Assembly (NCBI RefSeq): GCF_003334315.1
Contig: NZ_QOWR01000043.1
Length of the DNA: 42,323 nt
DNA from: Escherichia coli
GTDB taxonomy: Bacteria > Pseudomonadota > Gammaproteobacteria > Enterobacterales > Enterobacteriaceae
Strand: one strand, 5' to 3'
The notes beneath the pieces are model-generated. The model did no database searches and had not been told where the DNA came from. It saw nothing but the letters and a program-made list of their open reading frames with translations. Made by a program: the position numbers and the translations under genes. The stretch's first letter is position 1. Each line of letters starts with the position of its first letter. Below, piece by piece: positions 1 through 42,323 of the stretch.

Positions 1-244
1 CTAGTCTAAAAACTAGTATTAAGACTATCACTAACTTAAGTGATACCAACTGTCTGGAGATTCAGGGGGCCAGTCTACGACCCGATATTTTCTAAGTCTA
101 ATGGATTCACGATGAACTCCGATTTCGGTCTTCTCTCTCTGATTTAAACATCCGCAGCCAACCGGTTAGCGGCTTACACGCGGTCACATTCAAATGCGAT
201 TCTGCTACAATCCTCCCCCCGTTCGAAGATTGAGCAATACACCT

Positions 245-2266
245 ATGCGTCTAAACCCCGGCCAACAACAAGCTGTCGAATTCGTTACCGGCCCCTGCCT
301 GGTGCTGGCGGGCGCGGGTTCCGGTAAAACTCGTGTTATCACCAATAAAATCGCCCATCTGATCCGCGGTTGCGGTTATCAGGCGCGGCACATTGCGGCG
401 GTGACCTTTACTAATAAAGCAGCGCGCGAGATGAAAGAGCGTGTAGGGCAGACGCTGGGGCGCAAAGAGGCGCGTGGGCTGATGATCTCCACTTTCCATA
501 CGTTGGGGCTGGATATCATCAAACGCGAGTATGCGGCGCTTGGGATGAAAGCGAACTTCTCGTTGTTTGACGATACCGATCAGCTTGCTTTGCTTAAAGA
601 GTTGACCGAGGGGCTGATTGAAGATGACAAAGTTCTCCTGCAACAACTGATTTCGACCATCTCTAACTGGAAGAATGATCTCAAAACACCGTCCCAGGCG
701 GCAGCAAGTGCGATTGGCGAGCGGGACCGTATTTTTGCCCATTGTTATGGGCTGTATGATGCACACCTGAAAGCCTGTAACGTTCTCGACTTCGATGATC
801 TGATTTTATTGCCGACGTTGCTGCTGCAACGCAATGAAGAAGTCCGCGAGCGCTGGCAGAACAAAATTCGCTACCTGCTGGTGGACGAATATCAGGACAC
901 CAACACCAGCCAGTATGAACTAGTGAAACTGCTGGTGGGCAGCCGCGCGCGCTTTACCGTGGTGGGTGACGATGACCAGTCGATCTACTCCTGGCGCGGT
1001 GCACGTCCGCAAAACCTGGTGCTGCTGAGTCAGGATTTTCCGGTGCTGCAGGTGATTAAGCTTGAGCAGAACTACCGCTCTTCCGGACGTATTTTGAAAG
1101 CGGCGAACATCCTGATCGCCAATAATCCGCACGTCTTTGAAAAGCGTCTGTTCTCCGAACTGGGTTACGGCACAGAGCTAAAAGTTTTAAGCGCGAATAA
1201 CGAGGAACATGAAGCCGAGCGCGTTACTGGCGAGCTTATCGCCCATCACTTCGTCAATAAAACGCAGTACAAAGATTACGCCATTCTTTATCGCGGTAAC
1301 CATCAGTCGCGGGTGTTTGAAAAATTCCTGATGCAAAACCGCATCCCGTACAAAATTTCTGGTGGTACGTCGTTTTTCTCTCGTCCTGAAATCAAGGACT
1401 TGCTGGCTTATCTGCGCGTGCTGACTAACCCGGATGATGACAGCGCATTTCTGCGTATCGTTAACACGCCGAAGCGAGAGATTGGCCCGGCGACGCTGAA
1501 AAAGCTGGGTGAGTGGGCGATGACGCGCAATAAAAGCATGTTTACCGCCAGCTTTGATATGGGCCTGAGTCAGACGCTTAGCGGACGTGGTTATGAAGCA
1601 TTGACCCGCTTCACTCACTGGTTGGCAGAAATCCAGCGCCTGGCGGAGCGGGAGCCGATTGCTGCGGTGCGTGATCTGATCCATGGCATGGATTATGAAT
1701 CCTGGCTGTACGAAACATCGCCCAGCCCGAAAGCTGCCGAAATGCGCATGAAGAACGTCAACCAACTGTTTAGCTGGATGACGGAGATGCTCGAAGGCAG
1801 CGAACTGGATGAGCCGATGACGCTCACCCAGGTGGTGACGCGCTTTACTTTACGCGACATGATGGAGCGTGGTGAGAGTGAAGAAGAGCTGGATCAGGTG
1901 CAACTGATGACTCTCCACGCGTCAAAAGGGCTGGAGTTTCCTTATGTCTACATGGTCGGTATGGAAGAAGGGTTTTTGCCACACCAGAGCAGTATCGATG
2001 AAGATAATATCGATGAGGAGCGGCGGCTGGCCTATGTCGGCATTACCCGCGCCCAGAAGGAATTGACCTTTACGCTGTGTAAAGAACGCCGTCAGTACGG
2101 CGAACTGGTGCGCCCGGAGCCGAGCCGCTTCCTGCTGGAGCTGCCGCAGGATGATCTGATTTGGGAACAGGAGCGCAAAGTGGTCAGTGCCGAAGAACGG
2201 ATGCAGAAAGGGCAAAGCCATCTGGCGAATCTGAAAGCGATGATGGCGGCAAAACGAGGGAAATAA
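245..2266 (+). CDS. rep: ATP-dependent DNA helicase Rep (SF1 helicase), 673 aa
   Basis: ORF 194..2266; recognised Rep N-terminus [31 protein letters not shown] begins at ATG 245; Walker A GAGSGKT and helicase motifs visible; upstream ORF extension lacks homology. Confidence 0.95.
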
Positions 2267-3930: not shown

Positions 3931-5196
3931 TTAACCTGAACGACGACGATTACGCGGAGCGCCAGTACGACGCGGACCATTGCCTGTACGTGGGCGCGTG
4001 AGGCGCAGCGGTTTTGGCAGATCGGTCATCAATGCGTCCGGATTGTATTTGCTTACCGGAATTGAGTGACCAATATAGGTCTCAATAGCAGGCAAATTCA
4101 ATGCATACTCTTCACACGCCAGGCTGATAGAGTGACCGCTTGCGCCTGCGCGACCTGTACGACCAATACGGTGAACGTAATCTTCACAGTCATCGGGTAA
4201 ATCGTAGTTAAAGACGTGCGTCACTGCCGGAATATGCAAACCACGCGCGGCAACGTCGGTGGCAACCAGAATATCCAGATCGCCACGGGTAAATTCATCA
4301 AGAATACGCAGACGTTTTTTCTGCGCGACATCGCCTGTCAACAAACCGACACGATGACCATCTGCCGCCAGGTGGCCCCAGATCTCTTCACAACGGTGTT
4401 TGGTATTGGCGAAAATAATCGCTCTGTCTGGCCACTCTTCTTCGATCAGCGTTTGCAGCAAACGCATTTTTTCTTCGTTAGAAGGGTAGAAAAGCTCTTC
4501 TTTAATACGGTGGCCCGTTTTCTGTTCCGGTTCCACTTCAATATATTCGGCATTGTTCATCTGCTCGAACGCCAGTTCACGTACCCGGTACGAAAGCGTG
4601 GCGGAGAACAGCATGTTGAGGCGCTGGTTTGCAGGCGGCATACGGCGGAACAGCCAGCGGATATCTTTAATAAAGCCCAGATCGTACATGCGATCGGCTT
4701 CGTCCAGTACCACTACCTGAATGGCACCGAGGTTAATATGGTTCTGCTTGGCATAGTCAATTAAACGACCCGTGGTGCCAATCAGAATGTCAACGCCGCT
4801 TTCCAGCACTTTCAGCTGTTTGTCGTAGCCATCACCACCGTAAGCCAGACCCAGCTTCAGGCCAGTAGCTTCCGCCAGCGGTTCTGCGTCGGCATGGATC
4901 TGCACGGCAAGTTCACGCGTCGGTGCCATAATTAAGGCACGCGGTTGATTCACCTTGCGATCGGCAATCGCAGGATGAGAGAGAAGATAATGAAACGTTG
5001 ACGTAAGAAACGCCATCGTTTTCCCGGTACCGGTTTGCGCCTGCCCGGCTACGTCACGACCCGCCAGCGTCAGCGGAAGGGCCAGTGCCTGAATGGGCGT
5101 ACAGTTATGAAACCCTTTTTTTTCAAGGGCTTCTACAACCTTCGGATGCAGGGCGAAGTCGGAAAACTTCTGTTCTGTTAAATGTGTTTTGCTCAT
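3931..5196 (-). CDS. rhlB: ATP-dependent RNA helicase RhlB (DEAD-box, degradosome component), 421 aa
   Basis: ORF 3931..5196 minus; DEAD-box motifs (GTGKT, DEAD in [12 protein letters not shown]); Arg-rich C-terminal tail. Confidence 0.95.
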
Positions 5197-18170: not shown

Positions 18171-19519
18171 GTCTGCTGCAATTCAGTGGCCTGTTTGTTG
18201 TCTGGCTGCTCTGCACGCTGTTTATTGCCACGCTGACCTGGTTTGAGTTTCGCCGTGTGCGCTTTAACTTCAATGTCTTCTTTTCATTGCTGTTTTTGCT
18301 CACCTTTTTCTTCGGCTTCCCGCTGACCAGCGTGCTGGTATTTCGCTTTGATGTTGGTGTCGCGCCGCCAGAAATCTTGTTGCAGGCGTTGCTTTCTGCG
18401 GGCTGCTTCTACGCGGTTTACTATGTCACCTACAAAACCCGCCTACGCAAACGCGTTGCTGATGTACCGCGCCGTCCGCTGTTTACCATGAACCGCGTGG
18501 AGACCAATCTTACGTGGGTGATCCTGATGGGTATCGCGCTGGTAAGCGTCGGCATCTTCTTCATGCACAACGGCTTTTTGCTGTTCCGGCTTAACTCCTA
18601 CAGTCAGATCTTTTCCAGTGAAGTCTCCGGCGTGGCGTTAAAACGCTTCTTTTACTTTTTCATCCCGGCGATGCTGGTGGTCTACTTTCTGCGCCAGGAC
18701 AGCAAAGCGTGGCTGTTTTTCCTCGTCAGCACGGTCGCCTTTGGCTTGCTGACTTATATGATTGTCGGCGGCACTCGCGCCAATATCATCATCGCATTCG
18801 CTATCTTCCTGTTTATTGGCATTATTCGCGGCTGGATTTCGTTGTGGATGCTGGCGGCGGCGGGCGTGCTGGGGATTGTTGGCATGTTCTGGCTGGCACT
18901 AAAACGCTATGGAATGAATGTGAGCGGCGATGAAGCGTTCTATACGTTTCTCTATCTCACTCGCGACACCTTCTCGCCGTGGGAGAATCTGGCGTTGCTG
19001 TTGCAGAACTACGACAACATCGACTTCCAGGGCCTGGCTCCAATTGTCCGCGATTTCTATGTCTTTATCCCTTCCTGGCTGTGGCCGGGTCGCCCGAGTA
19101 TGGTGCTGAACTCAGCCAACTACTTTACCTGGGAAGTGCTGAATAACCACTCCGGACTGGCGATCTCGCCTACGCTTATAGGCTCACTGGTGGTGATGGG
19201 CGGCGCGTTGTTCATCCCGCTCGGGGCGATCGTGGTTGGTCTGATCATCAAATGGTTCGACTGGCTGTATGAGCTGGGCAACCGCGAGCCTAATCGCTAT
19301 AAAGCTGCGATATTGCACAGTTTCTGCTTTGGGGCGATCTTCAATATGATCGTGCTGGCGCGTGAAGGGCTGGATTCGTTTGTCTCACGCGTGGTCTTTT
19401 TTATCGTGGTCTTCGGCGCATGTCTGATGATCGCAAAACTGTTGTACTGGCTTTTTGAAAGCGCCGGACTCATTCATAAACGTACAAAATCATCGCTCCG
19501 GACGCAGGTTGAAGGATAA
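18167..19519 (+). CDS. wzyE: ECA polymerase WzyE, 450 aa
   Basis: ORF 18167..19519; highly hydrophobic polytopic membrane protein; start overlaps wecF stop. Confidence 0.93.
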
Positions 19520-42119: not shown

Positions 42120-42323
42120 GGTGATGCTGCCAACTTACTGATTTAGTGTATGATGGTGTTTTTGAGGTGCTCCAGTGGCTTCTGTTTCTATCAGCTGTCC
42201 CTCCTGTTCAGCTACTGACGGGGTGGTGCGTAACGGCAAAAGCACCGCCGGACATCAGCGCTATCTCTGCTCTCACTGCCGTAAAACATGGCAACTGCAG
42301 TTCACTTACACCGCTTCTCAACC
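42120..42323 (+). mobile_element. Insertion sequence IS1, left end (partial; continues beyond the window)
   Basis: Begins with the IS1 terminal inverted repeat ggtgatgctgccaacttactgat and continues with the IS1 left arm and insA 5' region as I recall it; only about 204 of about 768 bp are in the window. Confidence 0.92.
42175..42323 (+). CDS. insA: IS1 InsA (transposition repressor / N-terminal part of InsAB' transposase), 5' partial
   Basis: GTG start at 42175; translation [49 protein letters not shown] with zinc-finger CxxC...CxxC; runs off the window. Confidence 0.88.

Follow-up and report, generated by a model that had tools for sequence, protein, structure and literature searches.

The left terminal inverted repeat (IRL) of IS2 is 42 bp long and ends in a TA-3' tip, not in the CA-3' that is usual in the IS3 family; the OrfA repressor site occupies IS residues 39-48, with a weak extended -10 promoter, P_IRL, immediately interior to it, and the signals of the left end read inward only (PMC3299598). 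Members of the IS2 group transpose by a copy-out-paste-in pathway via a minicircle, and an outward -35, which can give rise to hybrid promoters, is located in the right end (PMC3219604). A literature search on yifN turned up only one unrelated case, in which IS2 had inserted within this gene during laboratory evolution (PMC4340650). Literature searches found no mapped promoter or transcription start for rep. The window described here is a stretch of 42,323 nucleotides from Escherichia coli (contig NZ_QOWR01000043.1), and its first 244 bases, which precede rep, consist of two ordinary parts, an IS end (1-77) and the native yifN-rep spacer (78-244). The IS end is very probably a recently inserted IS2-group left end at CGACC, followed by an unaltered spacer, with rep read from its own extended -10 promoter. 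The features are listed in Table 1.

Table 1. Features at the start of the window and IS2 copies inserted at the same site in other E. coli genomes (for these, the positions of the target duplications)
Feature	Position	Strand or orientation	Basis or remark
Entire non-coding left end of an IS (IS3 family, IS2 group)	1..77	-	100% identity with the termini of two complete elements of 1331 bp
Left terminal inverted repeat (IRL), IS residues 1-42	36..77	-	IS2 IRR/IRL alignment; PMC3299598
Inverted repeat and putative operator/promoter region	22..45	-	Sequence read directly; residue numbering from PMC3299598
CGACC, right copy of the presumed 5-bp target-site duplication	78..82	.	Left copy off the window
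Native spacer between yifN and rep, belonging to the yifN cassette	78..199	.	100% identity across many E. coli genomes
Probable core rep promoter with a short leader	200..244	+	Promoter scan and cross-genus conservation
rep (DNA helicase Rep) CDS	245..2266	+	RefSeq annotation of matching loci and ORF list
IS2 at the same site, ST540	L001 2742-2746 and 4078-4082	As in the window	Duplication CGACC
IS2 at the same site, ESDR8	L003 1706-1710 and 3042-3046	Opposite	Duplication CGACC
IS2 at the same site, Z226-5/-6	L007 about 1206-1210 and 2542-2546	Opposite	Duplication ACGAC, 1 bp shift

The GC content is 0.437 in bases 1-190 and 0.447 in bases 1-244, compared with 0.532 in rep and 0.525 in the whole window, and lies within the lowest 5% of equal-size windows. 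By part, it is 0.39 in 1-77 and 0.47 in 78-244. The original prediction, which was made from the letters of the sequence, described the 5' flank as AT-richer than the neighboring genes and its first ~190 bp as free of ORFs of 60 aa or more; both descriptions are accurate, the longest ORFs confined to 1-244 being 35, 28, and 22 aa. Short palindromic segments were also pointed out. CTTAAG is indeed present at 35-40, but 6-bp palindromes as a class are no more common than expected by chance (five observed vs 3.7 ± 1.9 in shuffles, P = 0.31). The composite nature of the region was overlooked, as was the mobile-element end that holds the quoted palindrome; the low GC content and the palindrome that caught attention are mainly due to this end. 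An Rfam scan of bases 1-600 at permissive thresholds gave best scores of 9-17 bits against gathering thresholds of 45-50, which is the chance level, and a terminator scan of bases 1-400 found none. The annotated start of rep is the ATG at 245, and the N-terminal sequence that follows from it, MRLNPGQQ..., is conserved across 101 loci of Enterobacterales.

When window bases 1-300 were compared by megablast with 5426 complete E. coli genomes, bases 1-75 gave thousands of dispersed matches, plasmids included, and nearly all E. coli matched only from base 76 onwards. Alignment with MG1655, ST540, and ESDR8 revealed a sharp boundary at 77|78, ...GGGGGCCAGTCTA|CGACCCGAT, also written ...CCAGTCTA|CGACCCGAT. 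The BLAST boundary is given as 76, not 77, because TA is common by chance to the IS tip and the empty site. The empty site, GTTACGACCCGAT, is uninterrupted in MG1655 (K-12) and in AHM9C68I, a genome in which 21,423 bp show 3 SNPs relative to the window and the IS1 junction of the far window end is also present. Among the 4016 genomes that bear the spacer the site is intact in 4008 and interrupted in 8. The insertion point is located 167 bp upstream of the rep start codon, and the insertion is recent in this lineage. A reading of the whole of 1-244 as conserved rep upstream or promoter region, with nothing foreign in it, would agree with the 100% identity of bases 78-244 in many E. coli genomes and with the promoter that they carry. 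It is almost certainly wrong, and the empty-site alignment already refutes it: bases 1-77 are without counterpart at this locus in MG1655 and in the near-identical AHM9C68I, and they form part of a multi-copy element present on chromosomes and plasmids. The 77-nt end was found at 19,135 places in 4457 of the 5426 genomes, with 3391 of these places on plasmids. The proposal that the flank is the rep promoter region survives for 78-244, above all for 200-244, which is identical in many E. coli and includes the -10 of the sole sigma-70-like site, and fails for the IS end in 1-77. BLASTN against E. coli genomes, suggested with the original prediction as a check, returned a conserved intergenic region for 78-244 and a foreign IS end for 1-77.

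The tip of the element at base 77 reads 5'-TAGACTGG... on the minus strand, and window 36-77 can be aligned with both inverted repeats of IS2, IRL and IRR. An inverted repeat with 7-bp arms, TATCACT (26-32) and AGTGATA (39-45), encloses CTTAAG and is a conserved trait of IS2-group left ends. In IS2 the OrfA repressor site spans IS residues 39-48 (numbering from PMC3299598), which map to window 30-39, and the CTTAAG palindrome is assigned by this correspondence to the putative IS2-type OrfA operator region. The motif TGATAGTCT (22-30, minus strand) is likely the extended -10 of the inward promoter P_IRL, with the exact hexamer chosen provisionally. The transposase gene reads leftwards, away from rep and off the window edge. 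By comparison with L004 and L005, two loci with full-length elements, the start codon of orfA would fall about 14 nt past window base 1, so that the window comprises the whole non-coding left end only. Between canonical IS2 copies the operator palindrome differs by a flipped loop: those of ST540 (L001 about 4031-4040) and Z226-5 (L007 about 1249-1258) read TTATTTAAGT, and that of ESDR8 (L003 about 1749-1758) reads TTAAATAAGT, as does published IS2.

Both ends of the window lie in ISs. At the far end, 42120-42323, the window runs into the left end of IS1 (GGTGATGCTGCCAACTTACTG...), and IS1 here interrupts a small ORF for a membrane protein that lies downstream of corA. AHM9C68I, the closest complete genome, has the identical IS1 junction, with an IS1A transposase gene between corA and rarD beside a truncated hypothetical gene. 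The window almost certainly represents a contig with repeats at both borders, and probably a complete one, assembled from short reads and interrupted there; its IS2-group part is exactly 77 nt, and 77 nt is a common assembler k-mer length. Since the window stops inside the element, these properties could also belong to a solo or truncated IS end, or to an assembly artifact at the contig end, and not to the edge of a full-length active element. We consider this improbable. An artifact would not reproduce a base-exact junction between tip and target at a site where other IS2 copies have inserted, intact elements have an end with 100% identity to it, and a multi-copy full-length IS gives a contig break exactly here. 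The 77 bases are therefore best read as the edge of what would be a full-length element continuing past base 1.

At least four independent insertions, including the different element of the window, fall within 6 bp in unrelated E. coli, at most 1 bp apart and in both orientations. By a rough estimate of our own, if 5000 independent IS2 events are spread over 4.6 Mb, three more in a given 6 bp are expected with a probability of ~5e-8. The insertions are rare, yet their coincidence at the site is far beyond uniform expectation. Transposase target preference is the simplest explanation of the recurrence and describes the site as an IS2-group hot spot. Selection is the weaker alternative because both orientations occur. 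It is possible, although we put it forward only tentatively, that sequence or structure directs IS2-group transposases to CGACC, 167 bp upstream of rep, which would make the pentamer a genuine hot spot; it is less likely that the insertions were kept for altered expression of rep or of the yifN-like gene. A true hot spot would offer a natural, compact target for the study of site choice in the IS2 group. A function of the insertion for the host, selected for changed expression of rep or the yifN-like gene and hence recurrent, is unlikely. Four independent events at most 1 bp apart and the position of the site, ~50 bp upstream of the yifN start and where the yifN promoter should be, would fit such selection, but the occurrence of both orientations argues against a specific promoter effect, and the left end has no known outward promoter and forms no detected junction promoter. 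Moreover, yifN is already frameshifted in the closest relative, the site is interrupted in only 8 of 4016 genomes, and target preference accounts for the recurrence more simply.

Bases 78-244 are the unaltered native spacer and run up to the rep gene. The segment corresponding to 78-199 is specific to the yifN cassette, was found in 4016 of the 5426 complete E. coli genomes and can only be loosely aligned with Superficieibacter electus, the sole other taxon retrieved with yifN, in which conservation is patchy. Positions 154-173 hold an imperfect palindrome, GCAGCCAACCGGTTAGCGGC, whose 8-mer core, AACCGGTT, is perfect; it is identical in the E. coli compared and not conserved outside E. coli, S. 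electus aligning poorly there. The yifN gene is a divergent PemK/MazF-like gene (Pfam PF02452, PemK_toxin, E = 1.5e-10), and a search of the YifN protein against NCBIfam gave no match. It is intact in ESDR8 (149 aa, L003 1207-1656) and also in S. electus (84% identity), and it is frameshifted in K-12, ST540, Z226-5, and AHM9C68I. In relatives its start codon is ~50 bp left of the insertion point; in the strain of the window, yifN must be situated past the IS, off the window.

In type II systems the antitoxin gene usually precedes that of the toxin. An antitoxin gene before yifN would fall in the spacer, on the minus strand, and a frameshifted gene of the PemK/MazF family (PF02452, E = 1.5e-10) is present upstream in relatives. 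Both points would suit a degraded-gene remnant in the region, either the antitoxin partner of yifN or yifN itself; the original prediction had likewise allowed for the remnant of a degraded upstream gene. Such a remnant is very unlikely, and the prediction is not borne out in this respect within the window. No ORF longer than 35 aa exists on either strand, none of the three short ORFs of 1-244 matches NCBIfam at E ≤ 10, and no antitoxin partner adjoining yifN is annotated in ESDR8, where the gene is intact. Between E. coli and S. electus, bases 78-199 are conserved in patches and not evenly, and yifN itself is beyond the IS.

A promoter scan of bases 1-400 detected only one sigma-70-like site, GTCACA-17-TACAAT at 183-211, with TG before the -10. 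The extended -10, TGCTACAAT, is located at 203-211, 33 nt before the ATG, and the -35-like GTCACA at 183-188 is weak. Across 19 loci of other genera the identity in block 200-240 is 92-100%, and the rep leader CCCCCGTTCGAAGATTGAGCAAT is conserved. The sequence TTTCTGCTACAAT is invariant in 12 of 12 other aligned genera with this promoter type (including Salmonella, Citrobacter, Raoultella, Hafnia, Proteus, Providencia, and Edwardsiella), with flanks that diverge on both sides. In 33 of 101 rep loci taken from species-representative Enterobacterales genomes, CTGCTACAAT occurs no more than 80 nt from the rep ATG. The rep promoter is most likely an extended -10 promoter, TGCTACAAT, that would not need a -35. 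The transcription start is predicted near 218, which would give a leader of ~26 nt. This clear phylogenetic footprint, by which the rep promoter is placed at an extended -10 element, is a by-product of the analysis.

Two classes of sequence are found upstream of rep in E. coli. The yifN cassette with the TGCTACAAT promoter is present in 4016 of the 5426 complete genomes, and in 1409 of the 5426 ppiC directly adjoins rep and the promoter region is a different one of 70 nt, TTGAGT-18-TATACT (L035 3986-4125). E. coli therefore has two alternative upstream cassettes for rep, an essential-pathway helicase. Both promoter classes are scattered across genera of the Enterobacterales (loci L009-L128). 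Global alignment with MAFFT of the regions upstream of rep from 100 loci could not be used, as it mixed two promoter classes that cannot be aligned with each other; it was replaced by local BLAST, motif classes, and a curated subset. The promoter types are mosaic within genera, differing between Citrobacter werkmanii and C. youngae, between Enterobacter mori and E. cloacae, and likewise between Superficieibacter electus and Superficieibacter sp. 1612_C1. The mosaic distribution suggests repeated replacement of the ppiC-rep spacer.

In the proposed account, an IS2-group element would have landed in the divergent yifN-rep spacer at CGACC with its transposase genes facing away from rep, and rep would still be transcribed from its own extended -10, independently of the sequence upstream. 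The outward -35 of the group is in the other (right) end, so the copy in the window brings no known promoter activity towards rep. The promoter scan of bases 1-400 detected no junction promoter at the boundary of IS and flank, and inspection by eye for a hybrid promoter with the right-end -35 found no -10 at the needed spacing in the flanks. The rep -10 is 125 bp from the IS tip, and rep expression is for this reason probably unaffected; judged from the sequence, the insertion most likely has no effect on rep. The yifN-like gene, itself already defective, has probably had its promoter displaced by the insertion. The feature is of an ordinary, already-known kind, an IS end next to a native promoter spacer, and the main value of the finding is for annotation, as the odd composition and the palindrome signal an IS end and not rep regulation. 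The recurrent IS2-group insertion site between yifN and rep is a further by-product.

Among known elements, IS2 has a left end of the same length and layout, with the TA-3' tip, the GGCCCCC...CTCCAGAC core, the operator palindrome, and the region of the inward promoter. The IS2 copy of ST540 has the same insertion junction and is identical to the window end at 69 of 77 nt; it differs by 8 substitutions, clustered at IS residues 28-32 and 42-45 (inner IRL and OrfA operator). All 77 nt are identical to the ends of two other elements, each 1331 bp long with a 5-bp duplication. One is an ISEc27-family element (L005 1247-2577, target duplication GGCAC, transposase WP_148116659.1), whose gene is annotated as "IS3-like element ISEc27 family transposase". 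The other is an unnamed IS3-family element near IS26 and qnrS1 (L004 1247-2577, target duplication GATTA; L004/L006, WP_163428417.1), annotated as "IS3 family transposase"; both annotations include a programmed frameshift. ISEcl2 was considered for the L004 copy on account of the nearby qnrS1 and was dropped, as IS26 and a truncated transposase gene lie between the copy and qnrS1 and published ISEcl2 is 303 bp from qnrS1. The L004 and L005 elements are 86% identical to each other, and 88% and 81% identical, respectively, to the canonical IS2 of ST540. As the 77-mer is common to at least two elements only 86% alike, and as the assignment rests on the 77 nt that lie in the window, with the rest off its edge, the exact IS cannot be named: the element is ISEc27-like, L004-like, or a third relative, among which the 77 nt do not discriminate. 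The rep promoter resembles the extended -10 (TGn) class of sigma-70 promoters, TGCTACAAT matching TGnTATAAT at 8 of 9 string positions. At rep the -35 region is poorly conserved between genera and the TGn and -10 are invariant, which is the pattern to be expected of that class.
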